Shown: positions 6,338-48,471 of the stretch, one piece after another
How positions within the stretch are numbered: the stretch's first letter is position 1
Layout: the number at the start of each line of letters is the position of its first letter
Source: a virus
Length of the DNA stretch: 48,471 nt
Reading direction: 5' to 3' (one strand)
IMG/VR virus record: IMGVR_UViG_3300002460_000047
Location: 1 to 48,471 of that record
Made by a program: the position numbers and the translations under genes
Notes under the pieces: generated by a model
What the model was told of the DNA's origin: nothing
Database searches by the model: none
The model's input: the letters and a program-made list of their open reading frames with translations, nothing else

Positions 6338-7978
6338 TCATTTTAGTAACTTATCTACGGTTACTAACCTACCTGTGTTTTCTATATAATACAAGTTATC
6401 CACATAGCCTGTCAAGCCTGTTATACGATTTTTTAATACTTTCACTTTTGTTTTTGTCTTTTCAATATCATCTGTCATATTACGTTCAAGCGCTATTATA
6501 ACATCGCTAAGCTGCTCAATAGCAGCACTTCCTCTAGCATCAGTCATGTGCACTTCTCTTCCTTCATCCCAAGATTGGCCTCTAAAAGGCCGTTTTAAAT
6601 GGCATACATTAATAATACTAACATTCATATCATGAGCTAATTTTCTTAAATTTTTCATAAGGATATCTATATCTTTTCTTTCTCCTTGCTCTCCCCCCAT
6701 ATCGTAAGTTATCATAGACATATGATCTAATATTAATAATTTACACCCTCCTAATTTTACCAGACATTGCAAATTATACAACAACTCATCGCCATTTAGG
6801 GACATAAAAGAAGCATCAATAAATTGCACTCTTCCAGATCTAATATACTTCTCGTAGGAGATATCGAATTTTTCTTTTAATACTTCCGGATCTTCCTCTA
6901 ATTCAAATAAAGGTAGATTATTATCTATTGCAATAAACCCTAAGCCAGATAAGCGAACGGGCTCCTCTAAATACGCTACCCCAAGTTTTAAATCTTCATT
7001 TGAATTAAGTAATTCATATCCTAATTCTCTAGTAAAACTACTCTTCCCAATTCCTGATCCCGCAAGTAAAGTATAGATACGCCCTAATTTAACACCTCTA
7101 ATGACACCATTTAATTGTGGGAGAAAAGTAATCGATAATCCTTTTGTATCTTTCTTTAACAGTTCTGCTTTAGTTGGTAATACAATTGAAGATGGTACAT
7201 ATTGTTTATAATTTAAACAATCTTTTAATAATGCATCTCTAGTACCTAACGTTAAATACTCATTCGGATCATGGTATCGCAATTCAATAGTATATATCTT
7301 TTCGGGGGTGAATAATCTAGAAGCATCTTTAAGCGCTGTAATACCTGCATCATCAGAATCAAAACAAAATATAAGTTTTTCATATTTATTTAATATATTA
7401 TAGTTGCGCTTAATTTCTGATTTAGTTTGTGAGCCTGCTCCCCCAGTTAAATAAAAAATATCTCCCTTAATAGTTCCCTCTCCAATGTCTGCTTCATATA
7501 AACTCATTGCATCTATGGCTCCCTCACAAATAATAGCTTCCTTTGCACCAATAATGAATGGGGCGTGCCCTAAAACACATTCATTACTGTTGCCTTGCCA
7601 ATAAAACTCTTTAGGGATTAATCTTACTTTTTGAGCGCACAATTCTCCATTCTTATTATAATGATTTTCTAAATGTGCTTTCTTTCCTTTTAATGTAAGA
7701 ACCTGATAATTAAATGCTCTACATGTATCTACTGATATACCCCTATCTTCTAGGCCCTCAAAATAACCAGAAGTAATTAAATTATTATTAATCATAGAGG
7801 TATCTCTAGTATTTGTCACAAAAGATGTAACATTTTGTGACATATTTTTATTACTATTGTACTCACAATTAGGTGTCTGACAACGAGAGCGCTCTTTGCC
7901 ATAGTTATCAGTCCAGAAACAAACATTATTACTGGAACCACAGTAATCACATGATTCCCTGCGGTTAGTGGTTGCCAT
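6338..7978 (-). CDS. Bifunctional primase-helicase (T7 gp4-like)
   Basis: N-terminal Cys4 zinc finger (CDYCGSS...CQTPNC), TOPRIM (ICEGAIDAMS, FDSDDAG), and DnaB-family helicase Walker A (AGSGIGKSS) and Walker B (LLILDH). Confidence 0.9.
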   Translation of the reverse strand: MATTNRRESCDYCGSSNNVCFWTDNYGKERSRCQTPNCEYNSNKNMSQNVTSFVTNTRDTSMINNNLITSGYFEGLEDRGISVDTCRAFNYQVLTLKGKKAHLENHYNKNGELCAQKVRLIPKEFYWQGNSNECVLGHAPFIIGAKEAIICEGAIDAMSLYEADIGEGTIKGDIFYLTGGAGSQTKSEIKRNYNILNKYEKLIFCFDSDDAGITALKDASRLFTPEKIYTIELRYHDPNEYLTLGTRDALLKDCLNYKQYVPSSIVLPTKAELLKKDTKGLSITFLPQLNGVIRGVKLGRIYTLLAGSGIGKSSFTRELGYELLNSNEDLKLGVAYLEEPVRLSGLGFIAIDNNLPLFELEEDPEVLKEKFDISYEKYIRSGRVQFIDASFMSLNGDELLYNLQCLVKLGGCKLLILDHMSMITYDMGGEQGERKDIDILMKNLRKLAHDMNVSIINVCHLKRPFRGQSWDEGREVHMTDARGSAAIEQLSDVIIALERNMTDDIEKTKTKVKVLKNRITGLTGYVDNLYYIENTGRLVTVDKLLK

Positions 7979-10308: not shown

Positions 10309-10337
10309 TTGACAAATAAAGGATTATGGTATATAGT
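10309..10337 (+). promoter_or_regulatory. Rightward sigma70-type promoter
   Basis: TTGACA (10309..10314) - 17 nt - TATAGT (10332..10337). Confidence 0.55.
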
Positions 10338-10343
10338 TAAGTA

Positions 10344-10800
10344 TTCAGGAGCAATATACGTATAAGGCTTTACTATGGGGTATGATTGTTCACTACCTTA
10401 CATAGCATTAGATAAGACAGTCTAATGATGCAAAAGACGAAGCCTAAGGATTACGAAACAGCCTAAAATGCATACTGGGGTTAAGAGCCCTGTCATCAAG
10501 GAAAGAGAAGATGGTTAACTGTCCATCACCTATAAAGCAAGGGTAGGTAAATACAGTGGCTGATAATATTATACGTAAGATAGGATATGAAATAATCAGG
10601 AGGATAGATCACATAGTAGTAATACTGTGTCCAGGTACTAAGGGAGAAGGGAGATAGACGATAAGGTTCTTGATTCTAACTTATTGTCTACCAGATATAA
10701 CTAGCTCTAAAGCATATAAAGCTGTACATTAGTAACAAGATAAGCTATATTATATGTATCCAGGAGCAAGGTATGTCTTTAGACGTAGTATGAAAAAGAG
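10344..10800 (+). ncRNA. Candidate structured non-coding transcript / long leader (about 460 nt)
   Basis: Lies downstream of the 10309 promoter. No ORF longer than about 16 codons has an RBS. Stems: 10406..10427 (7 bp), 10611..10630 (8 bp with G-U) and 10655..10690 (11 bp with one G-U that pairs only on the plus-strand RNA). Confidence 0.3.
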
Positions 10801-13813: not shown

Positions 13814-14052
13814 ATTTCGATTCTTTAGCAGTCAGATATTATTATTGTGAACATTGCAAAGATATCAATGAATATATTGTTGATACGGGCATAATTAAGA
13901 GATTAGAATATCATCATAAACGATTATTCATCTTTCCTTGCACTAAATGTGGCGATCCTAGAACTTTAATGATGTCTACTGAAAAAGACTTTATTAAAGA
14001 ATACTTAAAAAGAGACCCTAGAAGCACAGTTAAAGGGTTAAAAAATGAATGA
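13810..14052 (+). CDS. Zinc-ribbon protein (80 aa)
   Basis: CEHC...CTKC. 4-nt overlap upstream and 8-nt overlap downstream. Confidence 0.55.
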   Translation: MNFDSLAVRYYYCEHCKDINEYIVDTGIIKRLEYHHKRLFIFPCTKCGDPRTLMMSTEKDFIKEYLKRDPRSTVKGLKNE

Positions 14053-14794
14053 TCTTCAAGATTTAAGTAGAAGCGATAAAGAAGAATTACTACTTGTATT
14101 AGAAGAAAACAATAGAAGGGAAAGAGAAAATAAGATCTTTAGTTATTACCCCGAGACTGGTAAATTAAGTAGGGATGCATATAAAAAACACATGATGTTT
14201 TTTAAAGCAGGTAAGCATTATAAAGAAAGAGCGTTAATAGCTGCAAATAGATCTGGTAAATCTTTAGCTGCATCCTTTGAGATGGCGTTACATTTGACTG
14301 GTTTATACGATAAGTTTCCGTGGTGGGAAGGTAAAAGATTTGATGAGCCTATCCAAGCGTGGTCGGTAGGAACAACTCATGAGACTACTAGGGATATTTT
14401 ACAAAGATATCTTTTAGGCCCAAGACATGATTTAGGTACAGGAATGATACCTAAAGATTGTATTATTAGAGTAACGTCTCAGCCAGGTACACAAGATGCT
14501 ATTCATGATGTTTATGTAAAACATGCTTCTGGAGGAACAAGTCAACTTTCCTTTAAAGCTTATATTCAAGAAGTAGAAGCATTTATGGGAACTTCTATGC
14601 ATGTTATTCATTTAGATGAAGAGCCCCATAGAACACAGATTTATTCAGAGTGTTTAACAAGAACTATGACTACCAATGGAATAATTATGTGTACATTTAC
14701 TCCTGTGCAAGGTTTATCAGACGTAGTATTGAGTTTTTTACCTGGTGGACAATTCCCCCCTGATGGTCACGGAGAGGTTAGAGTTTATGAGTAA
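14045..14794 (+). CDS. terL: Terminase large subunit, ATPase fragment (249 aa)
   Basis: Walker A ANRSGKS, Walker B VIHLDEEP and coupling motif CTFTPVQG. The ORF stops right at the ATPase/nuclease domain boundary. Confidence 0.85.
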   Translation: MNDLQDLSRSDKEELLLVLEENNRRERENKIFSYYPETGKLSRDAYKKHMMFFKAGKHYKERALIAANRSGKSLAASFEMALHLTGLYDKFPWWEGKRFDEPIQAWSVGTTHETTRDILQRYLLGPRHDLGTGMIPKDCIIRVTSQPGTQDAIHDVYVKHASGGTSQLSFKAYIQEVEAFMGTSMHVIHLDEEPHRTQIYSECLTRTMTTNGIIMCTFTPVQGLSDVVLSFLPGGQFPPDGHGEVRVYE

Positions 14795-15152
14795 TTTTTT
14801 TATTAAAAAAGAAGGTGAACCTATACAATCTTTAGTACAGATTCTTACTAAAAAAGCTCAAGAGGAATTTAATGTTTATTGTAATTTAAATGACATTTAT
14901 ATTAATCCAGAAATAGAAAATAATAGTTCTGCAGTCACTATAAATAAAATTAACTATCCAAATATAACTTATGCTGTAGGTGTTATGCACCCTATGGATG
15001 TAGAAACTGCAGTTAAAGCGTTAATTAAAGATTCATTACAAGATAAAAAACAAATTAGTATTAGAAAACCCATATCAGTAACTCAAGATGGTGATATATT
15101 AGGTAAATATACAATATATTGTCGTTTCGCAGACATATCGAGTCTTAGGTAA
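14787..15152 (+). CDS. Hypothetical protein (121 aa) inserted between the two terminase fragments
   Basis: The ATG overlaps the TerL-N stop (ATGAGTAA). It is very AT-rich and has no nuclease motif I recognise. Confidence 0.5.
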   Translation: MSNFFIKKEGEPIQSLVQILTKKAQEEFNVYCNLNDIYINPEIENNSSAVTINKINYPNITYAVGVMHPMDVETAVKALIKDSLQDKKQISIRKPISVTQDGDILGKYTIYCRFADISSLR

Positions 15153-15164
15153 AGGAGTTTTCAA

Positions 15165-15917
15165 GTGGCAAAATGGGTAATTAACCTCACTTGGGAAGAT
15201 GCCCCACACCTTTCAGAAGAGGATAAGAAAACTCTTCTCGAAAGTTATGCACCTAATGAGAGAGACGCAAGAAGTAAAGGATTACCAGCTTTAGGAACAG
15301 GTGCAATATACCCAATTCCAGAATCTGATATAGTAGTTCGCCCTTTTGAGATTCCGAAAGAGTGGCCTAGAGCTTACGGAATGGATGTAGGCTGGAAGAA
15401 AACAGCAGCACTTTGGGGTGCTTATAATGAACAAGAAGATACTTGGTATTTATACTCCGAGTACTATAGGGGTTATGCAGAACCCTCAGTTCATGCAGAT
15501 GCTATAAAACAGAGAGGCCCTTGGATCGCAGGCGTTATAGACCCTGCTGCTAGGGGGAGAGGGCAAAAAGACGGTTTAAGTTTATTAGATGAATATTCTA
15601 AATTAGGTTTAGAGTTATCTTTAGCAAATAATTCAGTAGAGCCTGGGATTTTAGAATGTTATCAAAGATTATCAACAGGAAGATGTAAGATTTTTTCTAC
15701 TTTACAACATTTTCTTGCAGAATATAGAATTTACCGCAGAGAAGAAAAGAAAAGCGGTGAGATAAAAGTAGTTAAATCACATGACCATTTAATGGATACA
15801 TTTAGATATTTAATAATGACTGGAATGGATGTTATGCAACCTTATCCTATGGATGAAGATGATGATGTTTCAGATACGATATATTCAACTGGTCGCTCAG
15901 AAGTATGTGGATATTAA
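15165..15917 (+). CDS. terL: Terminase large subunit, nuclease fragment (250 aa)
   Basis: GTG start 7 nt after AAGGAG. INLTWEDAPHL, GMDVGW (RNase H-like Asp), VIDPAA and HDHLMDTFRY are the usual C-terminal nuclease-domain motifs. Confidence 0.85.
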   Translation: MAKWVINLTWEDAPHLSEEDKKTLLESYAPNERDARSKGLPALGTGAIYPIPESDIVVRPFEIPKEWPRAYGMDVGWKKTAALWGAYNEQEDTWYLYSEYYRGYAEPSVHADAIKQRGPWIAGVIDPAARGRGQKDGLSLLDEYSKLGLELSLANNSVEPGILECYQRLSTGRCKIFSTLQHFLAEYRIYRREEKKSGEIKVVKSHDHLMDTFRYLIMTGMDVMQPYPMDEDDDVSDTIYSTGRSEVCGY

Positions 15918-37698: not shown

Positions 37699-37870
37699 CA
37701 AATTAAGCGATGAAGAAATAGATCAAATTGTCTTAAAAGTATGTGATACTATTGAAGACCGATTATATCATAATGTTGGGCATGGAGTAATCCGATTAGC
37801 TTGGCGAGCCGTTCTTATTGGTTTAATCGTACTAGCGGCATATGGGGCAGGGATTCATTTTTTTAAATAA
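37688..37870 (+). CDS. Small membrane protein (60 aa), holin or spanin-like candidate
   Basis: Has a C-terminal TM helix (LAWRAVLIGLIVLAAYGAGI). It is the last gene of the late operon, next to the lysis enzymes. Confidence 0.4.
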   Translation: MSNNKLSDEEIDQIVLKVCDTIEDRLYHNVGHGVIRLAWRAVLIGLIVLAAYGAGIHFFK

Positions 37871-38439
37871 TATAAATAAATATTTTTTGGTTTAGTTTTC
37901 ACATATATAGCTAAACCTTCTTCTAAGTCTTTTTTTAATCTTGCTGCAAACGGCTTCAATTTACCTTTATATGTTGTTCTAATGGTTTTATCATGGTATC
38001 GTTTACCGTCAGATAACCTCAGAATAATTTTATTAGCGGGCGATTGTCCTACTAACATAAAATTACTTGCTTTATAAATAACTCCTGTATGACCGTAACT
38101 TAAATCGCTATAACTAATAATCACTTTTACATCTGTATATTTTCTTAAATAGCGCAATGCTTTACCAATAAACCAACTCTCTGTATTTTTAGGAGTGTTA
38201 TCAATACAAACTAATCTTCTAAGTTCCATGATTTCCTGTTCAGATGCTACATATTTTTTCCATTGATTTTTCATCGCCAATCTTCCAAATATCATTCCTC
38301 CAATTAATAACCCTTCTGCATCATTAATTTTAAAACAATAATCTGAAATCACTCCATTAATATTATGGCTATAATGATATTTTTCAATAAAATCTCGAAT
38401 ATCATCTCGACCACAAGAAGAAAAATGATATGGGATCAT
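37855..38439 (-). CDS. GNAT-like protein resembling Mom-family DNA adenine-modification enzymes
   Basis: The N-terminal pattern IEKYHYSHNINGVISDYCFKI...LLIGGMIFG fits the HY(L/S)H...fg...l.G...fG signature I associate with Mom-like/GNAT phage proteins. This is from memory only. Confidence 0.3.
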   Translation of the reverse strand: MIPYHFSSCGRDDIRDFIEKYHYSHNINGVISDYCFKINDAEGLLIGGMIFGRLAMKNQWKKYVASEQEIMELRRLVCIDNTPKNTESWFIGKALRYLRKYTDVKVIISYSDLSYGHTGVIYKASNFMLVGQSPANKIILRLSDGKRYHDKTIRTTYKGKLKPFAARLKKDLEEGLAIYVKTKPKNIYLYYLKK

Positions 38440-38443
38440 TTCT

Positions 38444-38671
38444 TTAAATAAAACCTAAATAAAGCATTAAATAGAAACCTGCAATTTGGCCTGCAGAAGT
38501 TATAATAGGCATACTAAAAATTCCTAATAATATTAATTCACTTATAAGCCTCACTCTACGATTAAATATCACATCTTCTTTTCTAATTTTAGTGAGCTTT
38601 TTTCTACGTTTACTTAGTATATCTTTGACATCTTTAATTGTTTTATCAAAATAATTGCGGTCACCTATCAT
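38444..38671 (-). CDS. Small membrane protein (75 aa)
   Basis: Basic N-terminal half and two C-terminal hydrophobic segments. 4-nt overlap with the upstream gene. Confidence 0.55.
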   Translation of the reverse strand: MIGDRNYFDKTIKDVKDILSKRRKKLTKIRKEDVIFNRRVRLISELILLGIFSMPIITSAGQIAGFYLMLYLGFI

Positions 38672-39225
38672 ATACGTCTCCTTGGATCAACTATATAACG
38701 TTTAATAACTTTACCATCTCGTTTTGTTACGTGTACTTCATAATGCACACTTGATTTATACACATCATCCATTGTTATAAGCCCTTGATCTATACATCCC
38801 TGCATCCGAATTTGATTTTCTTTAATCATATCATAAGTAGGTTGAATTACTCCGCCCTTATCTACTGGATGAAACACGATTTTATGCCTATTAAAAATAA
38901 CATTATCTCCATGACATACAGTATCTGCGTGCATAGACCATGCATCTCCAATTAAGTCAAATATAATTACTTTATATTTAACAGAATCTAATACATCTAT
39001 TACATCATCTCCCATGTGAACTAATCCTCCTCCTCCTTGCCACCTAATAATAATAGGATCATTATTAGGGTCTTTAATTTGATCTATAAAAATACTCCAT
39101 TCCAAAGCATATTTATAAAAATATAATGGTGGGGCGGATATAGTCACTAATTTAGCAAAAACAGGTAAATTGAAGAAAATTAAAGCTAATGTGAGTAATC
39201 CCCTTAATATCATTTTAGATTTCAC
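38668..39225 (-). CDS. Secreted ClpP-fold (S14/S49-like) serine protease candidate
   Basis: Signal peptide (MILRGLLTLALIFFNLPVFA). IIIRWQGGGGLVHMGDDVIDVL...GDAWSMH...VFHPV aligns by eye to ClpP (YINSPGGVITAGMSIYDTM...GQAASMG...MIHQP), with the Ser and His conserved. The track start is GTG. An alternative ATG lies at 39213. Confidence 0.4.
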   Translation of the reverse strand: MKSKMILRGLLTLALIFFNLPVFAKLVTISAPPLYFYKYALEWSIFIDQIKDPNNDPIIIRWQGGGGLVHMGDDVIDVLDSVKYKVIIFDLIGDAWSMHADTVCHGDNVIFNRHKIVFHPVDKGGVIQPTYDMIKENQIRMQGCIDQGLITMDDVYKSSVHYEVHVTKRDGKVIKRYIVDPRRRI

Positions 39226-39284
39226 TACAGAGCACCTTTTTATAAAAGTATAATATTAATCAATAAGTTACGTACAAATCATTT

Positions 39285-39313
39285 ATTATAATATCTCTAG
39301 TACAATCAATCAT
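39285..39313 (-). promoter_or_regulatory. Possible internal promoter for the distal three-gene cassette
   Basis: On the minus strand, ATGATT - 17 nt - TATAAT (perfect -10, weak -35), in the only intergenic gap of this block. Confidence 0.25.
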
Positions 39314-39728
39314 TTAGCTCTTCTACCGTAGTTGCCCCAAATAAATGCAGCAAGCCGCCCATTGATATATGTAATGGGATACAAGTCCTAGGATCTACTA
39401 CACGAATCAATATATTATGTGACATAGCATACTTTACTTCTCCTTTAATCCCTCTGGATGATTCCCACCCATCTAATTGGCATATCCATAACTCATCACA
39501 TCTACTTAACATATCCAGATCAGAATTTCTCCAATCCTCCCAAGTAGTAGTTAATAATTCTGAATGGCGAGCTAAGGCACTCGTTTCTGCTATAGGACAA
39601 TACACATGTACTTCCCCCCTATCCTTTAATTCTAAAGCGCATCTACATACATCCCTTTCCCTTTTCTCCATCACTTCTTTAGACGAATGGGTATATGGAG
39701 ATGCTAAATATATTCGTAATTTACTCAT
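39306..39728 (-). CDS. DUF1937 / nucleoside 2-deoxyribosyltransferase-like protein
   Basis: IYLASPYTHSS...YCPIAETS...WEDW...CDELWICQLDGWESSRGIKGEVKYA fits the DUF1937 pattern. The ATG at 39728 gives an ATGAGTAA overlap with the upstream gene. Confidence 0.5.
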   Translation of the reverse strand: MSKLRIYLASPYTHSSKEVMEKRERDVCRCALELKDRGEVHVYCPIAETSALARHSELLTTTWEDWRNSDLDMLSRCDELWICQLDGWESSRGIKGEVKYAMSHNILIRVVDPRTCIPLHISMGGLLHLFGATTVEELND

Positions 39729-39978
39729 ATACATCTCCGTTTCTTTCTATAGCCTTATCTTCATAAGGAGCAACAAGTCTTCTATAGAACTCTAATTTAC
39801 AACACTCTAATGCACCAATAATATCATTAATCTGCTGATACCTGCCGCCTCTAGCTATAAAGTACTGCTGACACATAGTAGTAAGCATAAAATTTAACTC
39901 TCCTACCTCTGTAGCAACCTTTGTATCATCTGGTATTAACTTTATTCTTTGCTTTTGTTGAATGTACGGCACTCCCAC
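39721..39978 (-). CDS. Small conserved phage protein, N4 gp49 / Sf6 gp66-like (family that I believe includes Acb2)
   Basis: GELNFMLT...Y...INDIIGALECCKLEFYRRLVAPYEDKAIERNGDVY matches the remembered PF13876-like signature (GALE..K.E.YRR..PYED.K...NGDV). GTG start. Confidence 0.3.
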   Translation of the reverse strand: MGVPYIQQKQRIKLIPDDTKVATEVGELNFMLTTMCQQYFIARGGRYQQINDIIGALECCKLEFYRRLVAPYEDKAIERNGDVYE

Positions 39979-39979
39979 C

Positions 39980-40384
39980 TCAACTACAATTAGGAACTAA
40001 TGGAGTTTTTAAAACTGTTATAGTAGCTGATTTAGAAACTTTCTTAATAGGGCGATCATCTAAATCATGCCTGTTCCGCATTATCTGAGTTACCATAGCT
40101 GATAAATGCCAATGTGCATGTTGTAAATGATTTAATCCAGATTCTTGATCAACATCTATCCCCATTTCCCACGAATTTATATGTCTTTTGAATGCGGCTA
40201 AATGGGCGGCAACTAAAGGAAGCCCCACTTCCCAATTACGATCTGGATTAGTAACTCCAAATTTCCTCAATTTTTCAATGCCAAACGTAGCTACTTGTGC
40301 AAAAGATAAATCCATCTCAGGAGGAATAAGATCAAATCTAAGTTTTCCGGTCATATCTTTAAAAGGTTTTTCTGACATAATCAC
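39980..40384 (-). CDS. dATP/dGTP diphosphohydrolase-like protein (DUF5664/MazG-related)
   Basis: KDMTGKLRFDLIPPE...VATFGIEK...NWEVGLP...FKRHINSW..G.DVDQESGLNHLQHAHWHL fits the family pattern (K.D.gK....L.P......GA.KY...NW..G....A..RH...W..G...D.eSGl.HL.H). Confidence 0.5.
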   Translation of the reverse strand: MIMSEKPFKDMTGKLRFDLIPPEMDLSFAQVATFGIEKLRKFGVTNPDRNWEVGLPLVAAHLAAFKRHINSWEMGIDVDQESGLNHLQHAHWHLSAMVTQIMRNRHDLDDRPIKKVSKSATITVLKTPLVPNCS

Positions 40385-40541
40385 CTCTAATTTGAGACTT
40401 TTTATTCAAGTGTATAACTGTAACTGTGGTACGATCTACTTGAACACCTAATTTAATTAATAATTGGGTTATTATAATTTTAATAACATCGTAAACTCCA
40501 GCACCGATAATAAAGGCTAAAATAAATTCGACCATACTCAT
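40359..40541 (-). CDS. Small membrane protein (60 aa)
   Basis: Hydrophobic N-terminus (MSMVEFILAFIIGAGVYDVIKIIITQLLI). It overlaps the downstream gene start. Confidence 0.45.
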   Translation of the reverse strand: MSMVEFILAFIIGAGVYDVIKIIITQLLIKLGVQVDRTTVTVIHLNKKSQIRGDYVRKTF

Positions 40542-40542
40542 A

Positions 40543-41364
40543 TTATTTCCACCTATTATTACAAGTTAAACATTTAAAACCAACATTACTCTTTTTTACA
40601 TTAGTGCTAAGACGATGCCTTGCTCTACATAATTCACACCGAATCTTTACTTTTTTTACTTTTTCGGGTCTAGAAGTATAATGTGGGAGAAAGGATAATA
40701 TTACTCTCTCTACGGCTACGGGTAAATCTTTATAATAAGGTAATTCTTTCCACATTAATTTTTCTGTATCCATAGTATCTTTCAACCCATATGGGATCAT
40801 TTTCTTACGCGCAGATACACCCCTCTCTTCCACGTCCACCCAGTCGTCATCCACCATTTTAATTTTACCACCTAAACCTTGCTGAACTGATCTATAGTCT
40901 AATTTATGACTGGCGGCTCTAAAAGATTTACGTGATAACTTTAAAATATCTATAGAAGGTTTTTGATCTAAGGTTAATAAATGTAAGGCTTTAGCTCTTT
41001 CATTCAATACTAAACAATCAAATCTATCCCCATTTTGAGTTACAATTATATCTGCTCTAGAAAAAACATTTTCTATAAACTCTTCAATCATACTAGAATC
41101 ATCAAAATTTCTCGTATCATCGTATTTAGTGCAAACCTTATCCCACTGTAAATATTTAGCCTCTTTCTCATGCATCCATTTATATTGTATAGTAATAACT
41201 TTATTGGGAATCTTAACTTGGTTATGAGATAAAAAAACCTTTTGTCCAATATAAAATGATCTGACCAGCATGTGACTTGTTTCTATATCATACGTCAACA
41301 CTTTAAGACCCTTTTTTATGGCCTCTCTAATAAATTTTATTCTTAAACTAGCTGGAATCCTCAA
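40543..41364 (-). CDS. DEDD-type 3'-5' exonuclease with C-terminal zinc ribbon
   Basis: LTYDIETS (ExoI), QNGDRFD (ExoII) and the C-terminal CELC...CLTC. TTG start 8 nt after GGAG. Confidence 0.5.
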   Translation of the reverse strand: MRIPASLRIKFIREAIKKGLKVLTYDIETSHMLVRSFYIGQKVFLSHNQVKIPNKVITIQYKWMHEKEAKYLQWDKVCTKYDDTRNFDDSSMIEEFIENVFSRADIIVTQNGDRFDCLVLNERAKALHLLTLDQKPSIDILKLSRKSFRAASHKLDYRSVQQGLGGKIKMVDDDWVDVEERGVSARKKMIPYGLKDTMDTEKLMWKELPYYKDLPVAVERVILSFLPHYTSRPEKVKKVKIRCELCRARHRLSTNVKKSNVGFKCLTCNNRWK

Positions 41365-42311: not shown

Positions 42312-43145
42312 TTACCTCCGGATCTTAATCAATTCTTTAACTTCATTAAACACAGTCTCTGGAATATGCCATTTCTGGTATAACTCTCTCACCTTCATTT
42401 CGTGTTGAGACATATCAACATCTTTCAATTCTTCTTTAAGTTTCTTAAGATATCTCGATTTCTTTAATTCTTTTGCTTGATCAACTTTTCCTTGCAATAC
42501 TAGCCAATTATATATGCCGGGAATATTATCAATTCGATCACCAGTAACTACTTGCATCCAAAAATTAAAACTAGCTTCTTGCTCATCAATATAGACTAAG
42601 ACTCTAGATTTTAAATTATAATGATATCCGGGTATCATTCGTAAATCCTTATCTATACTAGCAATATAGAGCATTTCATAATTATTATACAGATTATATT
42701 GCTCTGTTGCAAGTTTTCCGATAGCATCGTCCGCCTCTTCCCCTTCGATAATTTCCGCACTGTAGTCACGCACCAATAAATTTCTAACTTGTTGATAAAA
42801 ATGGGGTTTAGGTTTATGCGCTCTATTTTCTTTATATACCTTAATAGACGCTAAATTATATCTAAAATTCTTTTTAATATTCGGATGAGTGATGTATAAT
42901 CTATAGTTACGAATGTTTAAATCCGAAAAAATAGAATTCATTTTAGAACGTAAATTTATTTGTAATTGAGCTTCTGGACAAAGTCGTCTATATCTATAGA
43001 TTTCTCCACCATTTTGGGTTTGTGCGTGTTCTGCTTTACCTTTTGTTTTATATAAATGCCCATTACAACAATAAAAAGATCGTTCATTCGATAAAGCAAT
43101 CATATAGACTAAAATATCGCCATCAATTGCTAATAGCTTACTCAT
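42312..43145 (-). CDS. 5'-3' exonuclease / flap endonuclease (T7 gp6-like, PIN + H3TH)
   Basis: LLAIDGDILVY, EADDAIG and VTGDRIDNIPGI. The ATG at 43143..43145 overlaps the SpoVR stop (ATGAGTAA). The longer track start is hydrophobic and unlikely. Confidence 0.75.
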   Translation of the reverse strand: MSKLLAIDGDILVYMIALSNERSFYCCNGHLYKTKGKAEHAQTQNGGEIYRYRRLCPEAQLQINLRSKMNSIFSDLNIRNYRLYITHPNIKKNFRYNLASIKVYKENRAHKPKPHFYQQVRNLLVRDYSAEIIEGEEADDAIGKLATEQYNLYNNYEMLYIASIDKDLRMIPGYHYNLKSRVLVYIDEQEASFNFWMQVVTGDRIDNIPGIYNWLVLQGKVDQAKELKKSRYLKKLKEELKDVDMSQHEMKVRELYQKWHIPETVFNEVKELIKIRR

Positions 43146-44577
43146 TGCCGTTTCCTTTATACACAAGGTCATCATCATTATATAAATAATAAAAGATAGG
43201 GTGACCCCACAATTTACGTAAAGCTTTAAATACCTCTGCTGCAGGATCAATTAACTGTCTGTTTTTATTGCATTTAATAGTTATATACAATGTTCTAGAC
43301 TTTTTAAAATCGCAACCGTTAATATAAACTGTAGGTGAATTAGAAATATAATCAAATTGCATAGCTAATCTATGCCTAATTTGCTCATATCCTTCATAAT
43401 CATGGATATTATTAATTAAATTAGCATCGTCATAACGATTATGATCAATGCTAAATAACTTTAAATCTCTCATTACTTTAGGAGATAAATACTGTAAAAT
43501 AAAACTAGAATCTCTAAAATTATATGCAGCATAGCATATTTCATCAATCCAATTTTTACCAATTAATTGCGGAAACCATTTTTTATCCTCTTCAGTAGGA
43601 GAGGTGCATATCCTTTTGATATCTTCAAAAATCTTATATCCTAATGCATAAGGATTAAACCCAGAATAATATTTAGAATCCCAATCTAATTGATGATTAG
43701 AGCTCGCTTTCATTATTAAATATTCTATATATTCTCCGTCTGAAAGTACCTTCTGATCATACAAATCATCCATTAATTCACTTTCCCAAAAGTTTGCAAA
43801 CCCCTCATGTATAATTTTCATAAGGGGTTGCGGATATAAATACTGTCTAAGCGCACAATAACCATTAACAATCTCTCTTTGCCATGGTTTTAATCGAGAT
43901 GAATTTTTACCTACAAAAGCTAATACGTTTTCTTCATAAAATCTAGATTTTACATTGGGCAAATTCTTTTTATTCAAATTTAAGGTATTAGATAATCTAG
44001 ATTCAGAGTTAAGTAATTCTTGTTGTCTTTTTTTAATTCGTTTCTCATATGTTTTATTAGTTCTGTTTACATTACAATGATGTACAGCTAAACTAGAGAG
44101 TGCGTGACAAAGGTCTAAAAAATCTTCTACTTGCTTTTCTCCGTGCAGCTCCTCACATTCTGTTACTAATGTTTGAAATTGTTTCATCATAGACAAAGCG
44201 CTGCGAGCCTTTGTATGCTCTTGAAAAATTACATTATTTTTAAACACTGTAGAATGGCCTACTGCGGCATGGCACATAACGAGAATTTGTTTAACTCTCG
44301 TATTAGTCTCTAATAAGTAACATAACGTGGGATCAGTATTAAAAATACACTCTAAGGCTACGGGTAAAGTATTTGCTTTATATTTATTATATAATTCAAC
44401 ATATTCTTTACCAAAATACCAATGATTATAACATATTGGAAGCCCACTACAAAAAATACGAATCATATCGTCAAAAGTAACTAATTCAAACAATGGCTCA
44501 TAAAAAGTAAGCCCATATTTCTTAGTGGCTATTTCTTTTATTTTTAGCCACAAATCATCAATATCATAATCCATCAT
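43138..44577 (-). CDS. spoVR: SpoVR/YcgB-family protein
   Basis: 479 aa. The N-terminal pattern YGL.FYEP.FE......M, the CHAAVGHSTVFKNN motif (bacterial AH..GHndFFknN) and the overall length match. Confidence 0.75.
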   Translation of the reverse strand: MMDYDIDDLWLKIKEIATKKYGLTFYEPLFELVTFDDMIRIFCSGLPICYNHWYFGKEYVELYNKYKANTLPVALECIFNTDPTLCYLLETNTRVKQILVMCHAAVGHSTVFKNNVIFQEHTKARSALSMMKQFQTLVTECEELHGEKQVEDFLDLCHALSSLAVHHCNVNRTNKTYEKRIKKRQQELLNSESRLSNTLNLNKKNLPNVKSRFYEENVLAFVGKNSSRLKPWQREIVNGYCALRQYLYPQPLMKIIHEGFANFWESELMDDLYDQKVLSDGEYIEYLIMKASSNHQLDWDSKYYSGFNPYALGYKIFEDIKRICTSPTEEDKKWFPQLIGKNWIDEICYAAYNFRDSSFILQYLSPKVMRDLKLFSIDHNRYDDANLINNIHDYEGYEQIRHRLAMQFDYISNSPTVYINGCDFKKSRTLYITIKCNKNRQLIDPAAEVFKALRKLWGHPIFYYLYNDDDLVYKGNGNE

Positions 44578-45725
44578 GTTTTTTTCACCTCAAAAAATGA
44601 TCGAAAAACAGGATAAATTTCTTTATAATTTCTCACTTTCTTATAAGACATGTTTACAAATTGTTTCTTTAATTTATCAAATAAAGGAAAAACTTCATCT
44701 TCAACATATTCAAATTCACTCACATGAATATAAAATAAATATTGAGCTTTAGGCAAGATCGCATTAGATAAAATCGCCATTAAGTTAGGGGTATCTTCTA
44801 CCCAGTTTCCCCCGTCACTGGCTTGTGCAATATAAATATTGTAATCATTTGCAGAATATTTTTGATTTATTAAAGAATTAATCACTTCATATCCAGAAGA
44901 CATTATAGTACCACCACTCTTTGTACCATAAAAAAATTCTTTTTCTGACACTTCTTCGGCAGTCTCAGTATGCCGAACAAATACTACTTCTACCTGATCA
45001 TAATGTTTATTTAAAAATAAATTAAGAAGTAAGAAAAACCTTTTAGCTAAATCTTTTTCAAATTCTCCCATACTTCCCGACACATCCAATAAACAGAACA
45101 TGACTGCTTTAGTATCAGGAATCTCTTGCAAGGTTTTATAATTATACCTTAAATCATCTTCAATTAAAAAAGCAGGCTGGTATGTGGGGTTATTAACTTT
45201 AAGGGCTGTTCGGCGGGCTATAGAATTTAACATGGTTTTTTTAATATTTAATAGGGCTGGATTCCCTTTTTTACAGAACCCCGCTCTTTTTAACTCGTAT
45301 TTATTATGGGTTAATGTTTGTTTAACAAAATTAGGTAATTCTAAATCATCAAAAAATAAATTAGCAAATTCAGCGCTAGTTAACGTAAAGTCAAAATCAT
45401 CATTATCATTGCCGGAAGGTCCTCCTGCCGTTCCTCCCCCCTCACCTGTTGGTTTCGGCACTTTTGAGCCCTTAGTAAATTTTTTATTCCCGGGATAAAC
45501 TCTAATAATTTCTCCCACATCCGGCCTATATTTTATATCCGGCACGTCTAACCCTGCTAATTTAATTTTAACCTTCTTCCCTTTTAAATCAAATCCGCCA
45601 ATAGATGCTGTATCAATTATAGTCTTAACTTTAGACTTTAAATGATCTTTATATTTTCTAATAAACTTTTCTCTATTAGAAAAAGAAGTGCTCTTTAATC
45701 TATTCGGATTAGTAATTACTGTCAT
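44574..45725 (-). CDS. yeaH: YeaH/YhbH-family protein (DUF444, vWA-like)
   Basis: 383 aa, with a Gly-rich acidic loop (GEGGGTAGGPSGNDNDDFDF) and a MIDAS-like LLDVSGSMG. ATGA overlaps with both neighbours. Confidence 0.75.
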   Translation of the reverse strand: MTVITNPNRLKSTSFSNREKFIRKYKDHLKSKVKTIIDTASIGGFDLKGKKVKIKLAGLDVPDIKYRPDVGEIIRVYPGNKKFTKGSKVPKPTGEGGGTAGGPSGNDNDDFDFTLTSAEFANLFFDDLELPNFVKQTLTHNKYELKRAGFCKKGNPALLNIKKTMLNSIARRTALKVNNPTYQPAFLIEDDLRYNYKTLQEIPDTKAVMFCLLDVSGSMGEFEKDLAKRFFLLLNLFLNKHYDQVEVVFVRHTETAEEVSEKEFFYGTKSGGTIMSSGYEVINSLINQKYSANDYNIYIAQASDGGNWVEDTPNLMAILSNAILPKAQYLFYIHVSEFEYVEDEVFPLFDKLKKQFVNMSYKKVRNYKEIYPVFRSFFEVKKT

Positions 45726-47635
45726 TTAGTTGCACTTTTAATATACCAATCAATTAATATTTGAGTCTGTTTAGGTGTATACCCATTAGACACCATTCTA
45801 TCAATAAACTCTTGATGCTTCTTTTGATCGGATTTAGATGCCTGACTAGACGTAGAAATAATAGGTAACATCTCATCAAAATTACTAAATATCTTAGCCT
45901 CAATAACCTCTTTTAATTTTTGATATGCTGTCCATCTTAAATCTTTCCCAGCTTGAGATTTATACCTAAGGGCAAATTTAACAATCTCATTTCTAAAATC
46001 TTTCTTATTAGATACGCCCAATGGAACCTCAATTTCTACTAACCACGAATCTAAATCTTCAGGGGTTAATAGCATATTAGACAGGGGGTCGCGGTAGTCA
46101 TCCTCATTCAACCAAGAATCAGCGTATAAAATATACCTATCTGCAATGTTTTGACCGTGTTGATCATAAGTTTCAATACTAGCTTTTTTAATATCTTCTT
46201 CTAAAGTTTGACGATATTTTTTAGTTAAATATTGGATTACACTTAAATACAAAACCTCAGTATCCTTTGGTAAATCCTCTTGTGGTATTTTCTCACTTAA
46301 AGCACACAATAAATGTAAAGGATTGGCCGCAACCTCTGTAGTATCCATATTGTATGTTTGTGCCAATACTTTAAACGCAAAACGGGTAGACACACCAAAA
46401 AATCCCTCTTGTCCAGAATCCTTATTCTCATGCGCCTCTTGCTTATATTCAAATACGTTCTTAATATTGGGAACAGTATGCTTTAAATTATCCCCATTAT
46501 AAACCTCTAACTTATTCTCTAACTTTCCATCGGAAGGTTTAATTAATCGAGTTAATACACTAAACTTCGAAAGTATAGTTAAAGTTTGTGGCGCACAAGG
46601 TGCTTTATTTAATTCACTATTATCAATTAATTTTTTATAAATTAACGTTTCTTCCGTATATCGCAAACAATATGGAATATTAATAATACAGATACGATCA
46701 ATCAATGCTTCGTTACGTTGATTATTTCTAAATTGATTCCACTCTGCTTCATTACTATGTGCGACAATTAATCCCTCAAATGGTAATGCGCCTATATTTT
46801 CAGTACCATTATAAAAACGTGACTGTGTGGCTTCATATAGAGGATTTAAAGTTTTCGGAGGTGCTTTAAACATTTCTGTAAATTCAAGCAACCCTCGATT
46901 CGCTACGCATAAACCTCCGCTATATGAATAACAATCAGGGTCATCTTGTGGAAAATTTCCTAATTCATTAATATTTAATTTTCCAACTAACGTAGTGATG
47001 TCTTGATTATTTTCATCCCCCGCCTCAATATGCACAATCCCAACACGTTTTAATTCATTTGGATAAATCTTAACAACTTTTAATTTAGAAATATCCCCAT
47101 TTAATTCTTGGATTCTTTTCATTAACCAGCTAGATGGTACAGTATTAAGATATCGCTCAGGAATATGAAGCCTTTCTGAATCCTCTGGAGAAAATAATGA
47201 TAAAGGATTATCATATACAGGAGAATCTTTAATGGAATAAAAAGGATAAACCTCCATCAACCGTTTTAAAATGCGGGCAATAGTAGATTTTCCTCCCCCC
47301 ACCGGTCCTTTTAAATAAAGAATTTGTTTCTCTTCTTCCATACCTTGAGCAGCATGTTTAATAACAGATACTACCTCTCTTAAAGGTACTTCTAAACCAT
47401 ATAAATTTTTAAAAGGTTTATAAACAGGGATTATCTCGTTGCTAAAAATCTTTGATAATCTTTCATTTTTCCTAGTATCGATTAATTCCGGCTCTCCTAT
47501 AGCTTTTAATAAACGCTGTGCCGGAGTTGCATATACAAAATTATCCTTTTTAGCTAATTCTAAATACTCTTGTAAAGACATTTCCTCAGGGCGAGCCCCG
47601 ACCAGTTTTTGCCCTATACCTTTTAGATTTACCAT
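45722..47635 (-). CDS. prkA: PrkA/YeaG-family AAA+ serine protein kinase
   Basis: 637 aa from the ATG at 47633..47635 (GAGGAG 7 nt upstream; the track start at 47650 is TTG). SLQEYLEL...AQRLLKAIGEP, Walker A LKGPVGGGKST. Confidence 0.85.
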   Translation of the reverse strand: MVNLKGIGQKLVGARPEEMSLQEYLELAKKDNFVYATPAQRLLKAIGEPELIDTRKNERLSKIFSNEIIPVYKPFKNLYGLEVPLREVVSVIKHAAQGMEEEKQILYLKGPVGGGKSTIARILKRLMEVYPFYSIKDSPVYDNPLSLFSPEDSERLHIPERYLNTVPSSWLMKRIQELNGDISKLKVVKIYPNELKRVGIVHIEAGDENNQDITTLVGKLNINELGNFPQDDPDCYSYSGGLCVANRGLLEFTEMFKAPPKTLNPLYEATQSRFYNGTENIGALPFEGLIVAHSNEAEWNQFRNNQRNEALIDRICIINIPYCLRYTEETLIYKKLIDNSELNKAPCAPQTLTILSKFSVLTRLIKPSDGKLENKLEVYNGDNLKHTVPNIKNVFEYKQEAHENKDSGQEGFFGVSTRFAFKVLAQTYNMDTTEVAANPLHLLCALSEKIPQEDLPKDTEVLYLSVIQYLTKKYRQTLEEDIKKASIETYDQHGQNIADRYILYADSWLNEDDYRDPLSNMLLTPEDLDSWLVEIEVPLGVSNKKDFRNEIVKFALRYKSQAGKDLRWTAYQKLKEVIEAKIFSNFDEMLPIISTSSQASKSDQKKHQEFIDRMVSNGYTPKQTQILIDWYIKSATK

Positions 47636-47646
47636 GAAGTTACTCC

Positions 47647-48150
47647 TCAAACCCCTTCTTCAGCTTCTTTTGTAAGATTTTGTACCAACTCTAATGCTTC
47701 TGATAATTCTGTAGCCGTAATGCTCCTAGTTCCCGAACGGCAATTTGCAATAGCAAGATCAACCGCTGCTTTGACCATCATTCCCGTACGAGCACCGTTT
47801 GAATCATATCTTGTAGTTTTAGAACTCGCAGTAAATGGCGGCTTTTCGGAGCTTCTCGATGTGCTTGGTTTTGATGACTTAGTAGTAGTTGTTTCGGTTA
47901 CCTCTCCTAAAATTTTAATAATTTTATTTGATGTGCCTGTAGCGGTTGTTTGCTTATCTACATAAGCTTGGACACTGTCGCCAGCTTTTAATGCCGGAGG
48001 AACATCTATTCCTGCAAATTGAAAGAACTCTTCATTATCATCTGTTGTATAAACATGTCTATTATATTTATCACCACTAACTTTCGCAGTAAACGGACCT
48101 TTTACTTCTACATCTACAACTGTAAATTTAACTTCATTCAAATGTTTCAT
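47647..48150 (-). CDS. Hypothetical protein: N-terminal beta-rich (OB-like?) domain, Ser/Thr-rich linker, acidic C-terminus
   Basis: The composition and architecture resemble an SSB-like layout. No SSB is recognised elsewhere in the genome. This is speculative. Confidence 0.3.
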   Translation of the reverse strand: MKHLNEVKFTVVDVEVKGPFTAKVSGDKYNRHVYTTDDNEEFFQFAGIDVPPALKAGDSVQAYVDKQTTATGTSNKIIKILGEVTETTTTKSSKPSTSRSSEKPPFTASSKTTRYDSNGARTGMMVKAAVDLAIANCRSGTRSITATELSEALELVQNLTKEAEEGV

Positions 48151-48200: not shown

Positions 48201-48440
48201 TTATATTAATTCTTTATAACCACCATCTAACTTCTTATGCTCTGTACTTTCCTCACTTTCTTTACTTAAAGAAGCCGCGCCCTCTAATAACCACTTATAC
48301 TCATACCCGGCCTTTACCAACAAATGAAATAACCCATTTACAAAATTATGAGCATTAGAAGACTTGTTTTGTACTAATTCAAGCTCCATATTAACTTTAT
48401 ACGTTGAATAATTTGTCGAACTGGTAATGGTAATTTTCAT
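48201..48440 (-). CDS. Hypothetical protein (79 aa)
   Basis: ATG at 48438..48440, preceded by AAGAGGTAAGA. Its start and RBS lie inside the terminal repeat, directly after the stop of the 67..243 gene in the circular map. Confidence 0.55.
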   Translation of the reverse strand: MKITITSSTNYSTYKVNMELELVQNKSSNAHNFVNGLFHLLVKAGYEYKWLLEGAASLSKESEESTEHKKLDGGYKELI

Positions 48441-48471
48441 TCTTACCTCTTTTAATAAATACATCTATATA
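48386..48471. repeat. Terminal direct repeat, copy 2 (identical to 1..86)
   Basis: Exact 86-bp match to the window start. Confidence 0.95.

Follow-up and report, generated by a model that had tools for sequence, protein, structure and literature searches.

Organization of the locus

We analysed a viral DNA window of 48,471 nt. The first 86 nt of this window recur at its end, so the genome comprises 48,385 nt. Three bacterial starvation-response genes, linked and intact, are present in this phage, which is a well-supported example of such carriage. The sequence and its open reading frames (ORFs) place the three genes next to each other on one strand in the order prkA-yeaH-spoVR, flanked by a gene for a 167-aa protein and an exonuclease gene:

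47647..48150, minus strand: 167-aa protein, with a predicted OB fold (residues 1-85), a disordered S/T-rich linker and a C-terminal helical hairpin
47643..47648, minus strand: GAGGAG Shine-Dalgarno sequence of prkA, read directly; it overlaps the stop codon of the 167-aa gene
[quoted passage not shown]
44574..45725, minus strand: yeaH/yhbH homologue (DUF444), 383 aa, with a MIDAS-type motif set at the C-terminal side
43138..44577, minus strand: spoVR/ycgB homologue, 479 aa
42312..43145, minus strand: FEN-type 5'-3' exonuclease, 277 aa, with a start codon that overlaps the stop of spoVR (ATGAGTAA)

The sequence-only reading had placed three genes here, coupled to one another by ATGA overlaps and to the FEN gene by an ATGAGTAA overlap. 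ORFs were found at these positions on the minus strand, and both kinds of overlap are real. Read base by base, the PrkA stop and DUF444 start overlap at 45722-45725 ('actaaATGAcag'), the DUF444 stop and SpoVR start at 44574-44577 ('aacATGAtgg'), and the SpoVR stop and FEN start at 43138-43145 ('ggcaATGAGTAAgc'), which sets the FEN start at ATG 43145. The block was estimated at about 4.5 kb, or about 9 percent of the genome; it measures 4,498 nt and 9.3% of the 48,385 nt. The mechanical ORF start of prkA, TTG 47650, would overlap the 167-aa gene. Judging from the Shine-Dalgarno sequence 7 nt upstream, the true start is most likely ATG 47635, which leaves the two genes 11 nt apart without overlap. 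Promoters and terminators are not enriched within the block.

Protein families and conserved motifs

We assessed the family assignments by profile searches and motif alignments. PrkA matches AAA_PrkA (PF08298, 2.5e-137, profile positions 1-355 of 358) and the PrkA C-terminal domain (PF06798, 9e-54, positions 3-255 of 255), and it exceeds the cut-off of the proteobacterial-type NCBIfam equivalog PRK15455 (823 bits vs 576). In an alignment of 24 sequences, including those of Legionella, Enterobacter, RsoM2USA and phiYS40, Walker A (G110-P-V-G-x-x-K116-S), E251/E254, N295 and R314 are invariant. The AAA+ set of Walker A lysine, Walker B acidic residues, sensor 1 and arginine finger is thus intact. 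The phage protein is homologous to a solved structure, 9xip (profile E=3e-101).

DUF444 matches PF04285 above the gathering cut-off (6.7e-111). The match falls in two stretches because the phage protein does not have the central coiled-coil segment, which takes up about 53 columns of the alignment in the majority consensus; its length is 383 aa, against ~420-435 aa in most homologues. Of 57 columns with ≥95% conservation among 68 homologues, it retains 55, and it has the MIDAS-motif residues D214-x-S216-x-S218, T273 and D304, each conserved at that level. The score is slightly under the equivalog cut-off of the proteobacterial YeaH family NF003707 (382.5 vs 396 bits).

SpoVR matches PF04293 (1.1e-102); like the matches of PrkA and DUF444, this one exceeds the gathering cut-off by far. 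The protein keeps all 46 columns that are invariant in 67 homologues, including H52, E76, H103, H108 and E258. The SpoVR_C domain (PF24755) scored below its cut-off (21.7 vs 27.6 bits), as did the whole protein against NF008737 (423 vs 679 bits). The AlphaFold2 model predicts the fold with confidence (pLDDT 87, pTM 0.85); it has no structural neighbours in the PDB, the best E being 0.2. In two unrelated contigs, inteins are inserted at the NEG(F/W)A motif of SpoVR, and insertions of this kind point to a functionally critical site.

The three full-length homologues in canonical order that had been proposed from the letters were thereby confirmed as complete members of the PrkA/YeaG, YeaH/YhbH and SpoVR/YcgB families. 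Both motifs cited for them, GPVGGGKST and DVSGSMG, are present, and the catalytic motifs are not degenerate.

Activity of PrkA and likeness to MoxR-type systems

Although the family assignment of PrkA stands, its designation as a kinase is contested, and we regard this label as doubtful for the phage protein. The literature on PrkA enzymatic activity is divided (PMC9512850; PMC13001217; 10.1101/072470). The B. subtilis protein is described as an AAA+ ATPase with ATP-dependent protease activity, no autophosphorylation and no kinase activity. Its Walker A is the sole ATP site and its C-terminal Hanks-type motifs are degenerate; K108, the equivalent of phage K116, is needed for ATPase activity and sporulation (PMC9512850). 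For B. anthracis PrkA, protease and kinase activity were both negligible (PMC13001217). Profile searches of the phage protein detected no Lon-type protease domain.

These data bear on the possibility that PrkA is a Ser/Thr kinase acting on host or phage proteins in a takeover like that of T7 gp0.7, with YeaH and SpoVR as regulators and the adjacent OB-fold protein possibly among its substrates. In its favour, in vitro phosphorylation of casein and of YeaG itself by E. coli YeaG has been reported (cited in 10.1101/072470), a study of the YeaG-dependent phosphoproteome has been published (PMC8055822), and the linker of the 167-aa protein is S/T-rich. The Bacillus results argue against this explanation, which we consider unlikely. 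Moreover, unrelated proteins lie upstream of prkA in relatives, so no specific kinase-substrate relationship is conserved. The comparison with T7 gp0.7 is a functional analogy only, between host-takeover enzymes in phages with T7-type replication genes: the two proteins are not homologous, and gp0.7 is an early, proven kinase whereas the kinase activity of PrkA is in dispute.

An AAA+ ATPase gene followed by a MIDAS-motif gene also recalls RavA-ViaA and other MoxR-vWA pairs. The PrkA profile aligned with RavA over a stretch from Walker B through sensor 1 to the arginine finger (hhalign 86%, E=6e-6), and DUF444 with E. coli ViaA over the MIDAS segment (DxSGSMG...GGT; hhalign probability only 38%, E=3e-4); both similarities are short, local and weak. 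The DUF444 profile had no sequence match among solved vWA structures. Unlike MoxR systems, PrkA has a large additional C-terminal domain, and SpoVR is a third obligatory partner without a MoxR counterpart. Such an AAA+/vWA machine could conceivably remove or inactivate host anti-phage or toxin-antitoxin proteins, as the protease activity reported for PrkA (PMC9512850) might allow. We consider this very improbable: PADLOC models gave no match for PrkA, DUF444 or SpoVR, nor for the 167-aa protein, and no known anti-defence genes were identified within the block.

The 167-aa protein in the SSB slot

The 167-aa protein belongs to a small family (16 representatives) with no match in Pfam, PHROG, NCBIfam or PDB sequences. 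Its N-terminal domain was modelled by AlphaFold2 with a pLDDT of ~95, and the best PDB neighbours found by Foldseek are ssDNA-binding OB folds (E 3.6e-3 to 0.1, probability 1.0), namely RPA 2k5v, PrgE, Stn1, POT1, SSB and PriB. The OB-like domain and S/T-rich linker noticed by the sequence-only reading are thus borne out. Of the acidic tail, only ...KEAEEGV is present (C-terminus ...TKEAEEGV), and it has no terminal aromatic residue of the kind typical of SSB tails.

The gene sits in the replication module between PolA and the next gene. In one relative (L014), this slot is occupied by a gp2.5-like SSB (phrog_112, 1.3e-16), and in others by phrog_862 proteins with acidic-aromatic tails; the slot proteins of relatives terminate in ...DPVADF, ...NDPDFI, ...DTDY and ...DSLEF. 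Predicted fold and synteny support a role for the 167-aa protein as the phage single-stranded DNA-binding protein, proposed earlier as the missing SSB, but neither homology nor the tail motif does.

Conservation across the phage family

We compared the locus with related genomes. At least 14 genomes of ~46-50 kb share the order primase/helicase, PolA, SSB-slot protein, PrkA, DUF444, SpoVR and FEN, with PrkA identities down to 50%. T7-type replication genes and a P22-type virion module occur together in these phages. The 45 PrkA proteins of the family form one split (neighbour-joining bootstrap 76/100) and are not nested among the Legionella sequences, and the triad carriers form a clade in the primase/helicase tree (bootstrap 84/100); both trees are neighbour-joining only, with sparsely sampled cellular sequences. 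PrkA is the most conserved of the six proteins compared (59.5% vs 47.2% for primase/helicase), and its pairwise identities follow those of the replication genes (Pearson ~0.8). On the basis of sequence comparison, the module was captured once by the ancestor of this podovirus-like family.

It had been argued from the window that the triad is no detachable moron, and this is upheld by the same slot in at least 14 genomes and by the monophyly of carriers with two markers. The related proposal that the triad is hard-wired into the replication operon survives for the slot, which is conserved in the family, but not for the coupling by overlaps: the tight ATGA/ATGAGTAA overlaps are specific to this genome, and in relatives small ORFs separate the triad genes from one another and from FEN. 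In triad operons generally, DUF444/SpoVR overlaps are common. Of 80 IMG/VR PrkA loci, 65 have the prkA-yeaH-spoVR order, and most others end at contig edges.

The block could instead be a dispensable passenger that confers at most a conditional advantage and is lost without cost. It was originally taken horizontally from a cell, and the ORF insertions are tolerated. In the nearly identical contig L007, moreover, DUF444 has lost 73 nt, which shifts the reading frame and eliminates the MIDAS motif. This deletion may mean that phages can do without the module in certain circumstances, or it may be an assembly artefact, L007 being a single short contig. We give the passenger explanation little credence, given that every examined family member keeps the triad although their replication proteins are just 30-47% identical, that PrkA is the best conserved of the proteins compared, and that all invariant residues are retained.

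Genome context of the replication arm

Further replication and nucleotide-modification genes lie on the minus strand of the genome:

240..4102, minus strand: split family-A DNA polymerase (phrog_17/9556); N part 3326-4102, C part 240-1589
6338..7978, minus strand: T7-type primase/helicase (phrog_239, 1.6e-115), in the same minus-strand arm
39980-40384, minus strand: MazZ-like dATP/dGTP diphosphohydrolase, downstream of the triad (context block 39980..41364)
40543-41364, minus strand: RNase-H-fold exonuclease, downstream of the triad (same context block)

Six small ORFs separate the two polymerase parts, and with the circle closed the polymerase is directly upstream of genes for 58-, 87- and 167-aa proteins. 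A related contig, L004, carries an identical primase/helicase gene (Pfam Helic-prim_T7_N/Toprim_2/DnaB_C) and a DNA_pol_A match, and its gene order displays the wrap-around. Genes of the context block matched phrog_403 (7e-31) and dGTP_diPhyd_N (2.9e-20). The FEN exonuclease matched phrog_107 (2.5e-41), and Pfam 5_3_exonuc_N under the cut-off (5.8e-6).

A role of the triad in phage DNA metabolism, for example in replisome remodelling or a DNA hypermodification step, would explain its place among these genes. Its conserved position, with the SSB-slot gene on one side and FEN on the other, is consistent with this, as are the Mom-like, MazZ-like and deoxyribosyltransferase-like genes in the same arm and, on other viral contigs, the proximity of the triad to DNA polymerase, ligases and a homing endonuclease. 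Even so, we judge such a role improbable. A further 80 T7-type contigs have no triad and replicate without it. Gene position in T7-like genomes mirrors expression timing as much as function. No connection of the bacterial triad with DNA metabolism is known; its phenotypes relate to starvation and to the use of nitrogen and carbon sources (10.1101/072470, PMC4664914).

Relation to bacterial and phage triads

The phage genes represent the same three families, in the same order, as the starvation/sporulation module of E. coli (YeaG-YeaH/YcgB) and B. subtilis (PrkA-YhbH-SpoVR). Compared with Enterobacter proteins on the LAU1 record, phage PrkA is 50% and YeaH 36% identical. In six bacteria, strong cofitness links yeaG, yeaH and ycgB (10.1101/072470), and yeaG is activated by NtrC and required to survive sustained nitrogen starvation (PMC4664914). 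E. coli YeaG also reduces metabolic activity in a subpopulation of cells (PMC4664914); the benefit of this for a replicating phage is not obvious. Unlike the bacterial module, the phage triad lies in a replication arm and is not under NtrC/RpoS/sigma-E control, DUF444 is without the central coiled-coil, DUF444 and SpoVR fall below NCBIfam equivalog cut-offs, and the PrkA proteins of the family form their own clade.

Phage triads are already on record in phiYS40, RsoM2USA, PHROGs and 262 IMG/VR contigs, which lowers the novelty of the present case. Ralstonia jumbo phage RsoM2USA has the whole triad in canonical order (ORF30-29-28; PMC8504454). Thermus phage phiYS40/TMA also has all three genes (YS40_056, DUF444-like; 057, SpoVR; 059, serine kinase), in a different order and with 21-29% identity to the proteins of this phage. 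These myoviruses have genomes of 150-340 kb, with hundreds of genes besides the triad, whereas here it is a family-defining block that occupies close to a tenth of a 48-kb genome.

Proposed role in starved hosts

We lean, by a modest degree, towards an old, single capture by the family ancestor followed by retention as a core module, an AAA+/vWA machine that overrides the starvation state of the host. Kept between the SSB-slot gene and FEN, the module would be expressed together with the replication genes. PrkA would act as an AAA+ ATPase motor rather than a proven kinase, YeaH as its putative vWA/MIDAS adaptor on the model of RavA-ViaA and similar MoxR-vWA pairs, and SpoVR as a His/Glu-rich partner or effector. 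Together they may constitute an ATP-driven machine for protein remodelling or degradation. The bacterial three-gene pathway resets physiology in starvation; the phage copy, expressed from the replication arm, could impose or override that state independently of host NtrC/RpoS control and so secure replication in nutrient-limited, slow-growing hosts. A stronger version would make the triad indispensable to these small phages, a family-defining machine of MoxR-like motor, MIDAS adaptor and SpoVR enzyme, with the SpoVR active site marked by the recurrent inteins at NEG(F/W)A, that enables replication in starved cells; this is distinctly less likely, and we put it forward as tentative. If true, the regulation-free 4.5-kb phage triad would provide the minimal system for clarifying the biochemistry of the widespread YeaG/YeaH/YcgB pathway.

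In marine viromes, spoVR was reported as the most abundant viral 'sporulation' auxiliary metabolic gene (AMG), likewise on contigs of viruses from environments under nutrient or redox stress (PMC8940887). That report used Pfam counts, interpreted the hits as sporulation genes and left PrkA unmentioned, whereas spoVR here is part of a full triad.

The triad and its junctions

Identical ends (86 nt; 1-86 and 48386-48471) show that the window is a complete phage genome with a unit length of 48,385 nt, in a circularly closed or terminally redundant assembly. An 87-aa ORF (48201-48464) runs into the repeated end. The genome, with a G+C content of ~30-39%, is mosaic, pairing a replication module of T7 type with a virion module of P22 type. 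The virion arm occupies the plus strand from ~13.0 to 37.7 kb, and a minus-strand arm (1-9.9 kb and 37.9-48.5 kb), unbroken across the window ends, carries the triad. No phage RNA polymerase was identified among the window ORFs scanned, and no tRNAs were found.

The triad and the gene preceding it
43138-44577, minus strand: SpoVR/YcgB
44574-45725, minus strand: DUF444/YeaH
45722-47635, minus strand: PrkA/YeaG
47647-48150, minus strand: 167-aa protein in the slot for a single-stranded DNA-binding protein (SSB)

The three ORFs lie where the sequence-only reading had placed them, and its family assignments were borne out by Pfam profiles: AAA_PrkA (2.5e-137) and PrkA (9e-54), DUF444 (6.7e-111) and SpoVR (1.1e-102). 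On alignment the catalytic motifs are not degenerate. We read the junctions base by base and confirmed the ATGA overlaps of prkA with DUF444 and of DUF444 with spoVR, as well as the overlap of spoVR with the FEN exonuclease gene (common bases ATGAGTAA). Together the three genes cover 4,498 nt (9.3% of the genome). A mechanical ORF call that starts prkA at TTG 47650 is unlikely to be right: the ATG at 47635 has a GAGGAG Shine-Dalgarno sequence 7 nt upstream, and with this start 11 nt separate prkA from the 167-aa gene. Because internal promoter- and terminator-like sites are no commoner in the region than in shuffled controls, the sequence is consistent with read-through transcription of the triad region, which it does not prove.

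The triad is a fixed block in a family of compact phages

In a search of 5.8 billion proteins, no named cellular PrkA was as close to the query as ~38 PrkAs with 52-100% identity, many of which are on contigs of 46-50 kb. This search scores only the candidates with the most words in common with the query and may favour AT-rich genomes, e.g., Legionella. The contexts of the close PrkAs, together with IMG/VR loci, yielded 14 distinct genomes with a common layout: T7-type primase/helicase, family-A polymerase, a 160-198-aa protein, PrkA, DUF444, SpoVR, FEN exonuclease, RNase-H-fold exonuclease and MazZ-like hydrolase. The mean pairwise identity among family genomes is highest for PrkA (59.5%), followed by primase/helicase (47.2%), SpoVR (46.9%), DUF444 (45.0%), FEN (39.9%) and the exonuclease (34.7%). 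PrkA identity rises and falls with that of primase/helicase (Pearson 0.82) and that of FEN (Pearson 0.81); Spearman is 0.50, and the pairs are not independent. The nearest relatives are just 67-68% identical at the protein level, so synonymous sites would be saturated for dN/dS.

We placed the family in neighbour-joining trees with limited cellular sampling. In the tree of 129 PrkAs, a single split (bootstrap 76/100) separates the 45 members of the family from the rest, and the family does not nest within Legionella. The primase/helicase tree agrees with the PrkA tree, the triad carriers forming a clade (bootstrap 84/100). Triad genes are present in none of 80 further T7-type viral contigs retrieved with the primase/helicase profile; in 79 of the 80, the distance from primase/helicase to FEN is ~3.3-5.7 kb. 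These sequences are most simply read as a single acquisition in the ancestor of the family, with the triad kept since then; this supports the earlier view that it is no detachable moron. The description of the triad as hard-wired holds for its slot, which is fixed in the 14 genomes, and fails for the tight coupling of its genes, which is not conserved in relatives. Small ORFs lie between PrkA and DUF444 in three related contigs (L091, L092 and L094). DUF444 and SpoVR are separated by ORFs in L094 and by four in the related contig L095, one of which encodes a 2OG-Fe(II) oxygenase. The SpoVR-FEN interval holds a ClpP-like gene in L092 and YopX-type genes in other relatives. Across all kinds of triad loci, DUF444 and SpoVR often overlap by 1, 4 or 8 nt.

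The region had no megablast match among 50,697 phage records, and the best protein matches of the primase/helicase and the Hc3 head-closure protein in these deposited genomes are only 30-36% identical. A primase/helicase profile scan of 185,579 genomes found no family members. The window phage appears to represent an uncultured family, with T7-type replication and a P22-type virion, that has no cultured relative. The closest named PrkAs are nearly all from Legionella (54-55%), and in L091, whose PrkA is 67% identical, two tiny ankyrin-repeat ORFs (422-616 and 10224-10427) flank the module. Together these hint at a Legionellales-like host. Against this hint, the closest named SpoVRs are from other Gammaproteobacteria (Oceanospirillales, Pseudomonas and Methylobacter), the family PrkAs are not nested within the Legionella sequences, and the genome scan found no family member.

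Conserved residues and structural comparisons

We aligned 24 PrkAs, including those of Legionella, Caldichromatium, Enterobacter, Ralstonia phage RsoM2USA and Thermus phage phiYS40. Walker A (G110-P-V-G-x-x-K116-S), E251 and E254 of the Walker B region, sensor-1 N295 and R314, a candidate arginine finger, are all invariant. K116 is equivalent to K108 of Bacillus subtilis PrkA, which is required for ATPase activity and sporulation (PMC9512850). The protein passes the NCBIfam equivalog for proteobacterial-type PrkA (823 bits vs. a cut-off of 576), and the PrkA profile gives a full-length match to the recently deposited structures 9xip-9xir (E=3e-101); we found no publication for these entries. 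The name "kinase" should be used with caution because the B. subtilis protein, which binds and hydrolyses ATP only via its AAA+ Walker A site, showed slow ATP-dependent protease activity and no autophosphorylation or kinase activity (PMC9512850). We rejected the idea that PrkA contains a recognisable Lon-type protease domain: its match with Lon is confined to the P-loop region, and Lon_C gave no hit. With hhalign, the PrkA profile aligned to RavA, the MoxR-type AAA+ ATPase of the RavA-ViaA pair, from Walker B through sensor 1 to the arginine finger (probability 86%, E=6e-6).

DUF444 retains D214-x-S216-x-S218, T273 and D304. Of 57 columns with ≥95% conservation in 68 homologues, it keeps 55. 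It lacks a central coiled-coil segment (~53 alignment columns of the majority consensus) and scores slightly below the NCBIfam equivalog cut-off. Its profile aligned weakly with ViaA, the vWA partner of RavA, in the MIDAS segment (hhalign 38%, E=3e-4) and matched no solved vWA structure by sequence. In a near-identical contig from a sister sample (L007:2205-3283, compared with window 44574-45725), a 73-nt deletion (gene nt 628-700) takes out the DVSGSMG MIDAS motif and shifts the frame; the contig represents either a knock-out variant that occurs in nature or an error of assembly.

SpoVR keeps every column that is invariant in 67 homologues, including H52, E76, H103, H108 and E258, and these conserved His and Glu residues are suggestive of a metal site. 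A known metallohydrolase fold was dropped as an explanation: the confident AlphaFold2 model (pLDDT 87, pTM 0.85) has no structural neighbour in the PDB by Foldseek (best E 0.2, TM ~0.1). Three family SpoVRs (P0146, P0147 at L095:14687-17062, and P0153) carry a ~295-aa insertion inside the most conserved motif, NEGFA|SFW. The insertion begins with Cys, ends in ...GN before Ser, and contains a LAGLIDADG-like segment (AVISDGHF). An unrelated viral contig has a ~347-aa insertion at essentially the same site, ending ...HN|C. The insertion loci listed are that of P0147 and L045:13262-16012, and the site corresponds to window SpoVR residues 257-264 (~43786-43809). Pfam gives only a weak Intein_splicing match (E=0.003). 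The insertions look like inteins, and inteins thus seem to have targeted the NEGFA motif more than once.

The protein in the SSB slot

The 167-aa protein had no match in Pfam, PHROG, NCBIfam or PDB sequences, and an exhaustive HMMER search recovered a family of only 16 cluster representatives. The OB-like domain and S/T-rich linker proposed for it are present in the AlphaFold2 model, in which residues 1-85 form a five-stranded beta-barrel (pLDDT ~95), followed by the disordered linker and a helical hairpin. Its best PDB neighbours are OB folds that bind ssDNA (archaeal RPA, PrgE, Stn1, POT1, Sulfolobus SSB and PriB), with probability 1.0, although the E-values (3.6e-3 to 0.1) are modest. In the compared locus L014 this slot is occupied by a gp2.5-like SSB (phrog_112, 1.3e-16), and in other relatives by phrog_862 proteins with acidic-aromatic tails, e.g., ...DPVADF; the window protein ends in ...EAEEGV. 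Given the modelled fold and the slot contents in relatives, the protein is plausibly the missing SSB, as a non-homologous replacement. Nothing supports the other suggestion, that it is a kinase substrate.

Other viral copies of the triad

Triads in phages had been recorded before. PHROGs families exist for all three proteins, and 17 of 50,697 GenBank phage records, four of them 0.6-Mb metagenomic phages, encode a PrkA homologue. Thermus phages phiYS40 and TMA have all three genes in an order that differs from that of the window, whereas ORF30-29-28 of the Ralstonia jumbo phage RsoM2USA share its canonical order. Enterobacter phage LAU1 (L002, record positions 1-3308), another match, has yeaG-yeaH at the very end of its record. 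In this record and in two IMG/VR loci (L029 and L041), the pair lacks an adjoining spoVR and is spaced as in enterobacteria (71 nt apart in L041 and L002); these are probably host DNA beside a prophage and not phage genes.

An alignment-based scan identified 262 IMG/VR contigs with a PrkA relative; a single-protein scan of IMG/VR returned nothing. Among the best 80 of the 262, the complete ordered triad is present in 65, and contig ends truncate most of the others. The contigs are plausibly viral because sampled flanks hold a major head protein, family-B polymerase, ligases and a homing endonuclease. A marine virome study reported spoVR as the most abundant "sporulation" AMG (PMC8940887), and treating viral spoVR as a sporulation gene is a habit of viromics that the triad corrects. 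In the literature searched, the triad appears to be undescribed as a fixed, highly conserved core block of a compact phage family.

Possible function of the triad

Many bacteria conserve YeaG/PrkA, YeaH and YcgB/SpoVR, which work as one pathway in starvation and sporulation. [quoted passage not shown] The three genes are linked genetically by cofitness (r > 0.7) in six bacteria (10.1101/072470), and E. coli yeaG is activated by NtrC and required for survival of sustained nitrogen starvation (PMC4664914). We rejected membership of a defence system, as there were no PADLOC matches. By analogy, we favour a model in which PrkA would be an AAA+ motor, YeaH a MIDAS adaptor and SpoVR a third effector of a machine that may act on host proteins and lead to a starvation-type physiological state. 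The share of a compact genome given to the triad (9%), its fixed slot and the conservation of PrkA above that of primase/helicase argue for a strong and general benefit during infection. The phage triad also offers biochemical and structural work a stripped-down version without host regulation.

Other features of the genome

Features outside the triad
240-1589 (C part) and 3326-4102 (N part), minus strand: split family-A DNA polymerase, with ~1.7 kb and six small ORFs, including a YopX-domain protein, between the parts
5744-6322, minus strand: small peptidase gene in the replication arm, not the virion arm (weak HslV-family match; phrog_1040, 2e-8)
~13.0-37.7 kb, plus strand: virion-arm genes (split terminase, portal, major head protein, P22-type head-closure Hc3, DNA-ejection protein, glucosaminidase and CHAP lysis genes)
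14045-15917, plus strand: interrupted large terminase subunit (Terminase_6N positions 3-150 in 14045-14794; remaining Terminase_6N and Terminase_6C in 15165-15917)
37855-38439, minus strand: Mom-like protein (phrog_1384, 2e-57)
39306-39734, minus strand: nucleoside 2-deoxyribosyltransferase-like/DUF1937 protein
39980-40384, minus strand: MazZ-like dATP/dGTP diphosphohydrolase

CLP_protease counterparts of the peptidase occur in five related contigs (L008:4564-5256, L093:895-1488, L094:4058-4633, L095:3906-4502 and L092:13608-14282), and that of L092 is directly 3' of spoVR. The genome encodes no unfoldase to partner the window peptidase other than the AAA+ PrkA, and a functional link between peptidase and PrkA is speculative. 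The polymerase of relatives is either unsplit, at 593-655 aa (L008 and L093-L095), or in two adjoining pieces (L091 and L092). The two terminase parts are separated by an unassigned 135-aa ORF (14745-15152), and the interruption may stem from an intron, a mobile insertion or a frameshift. The minus-strand cluster at 37855-40384 is suggestive of DNA base modification.
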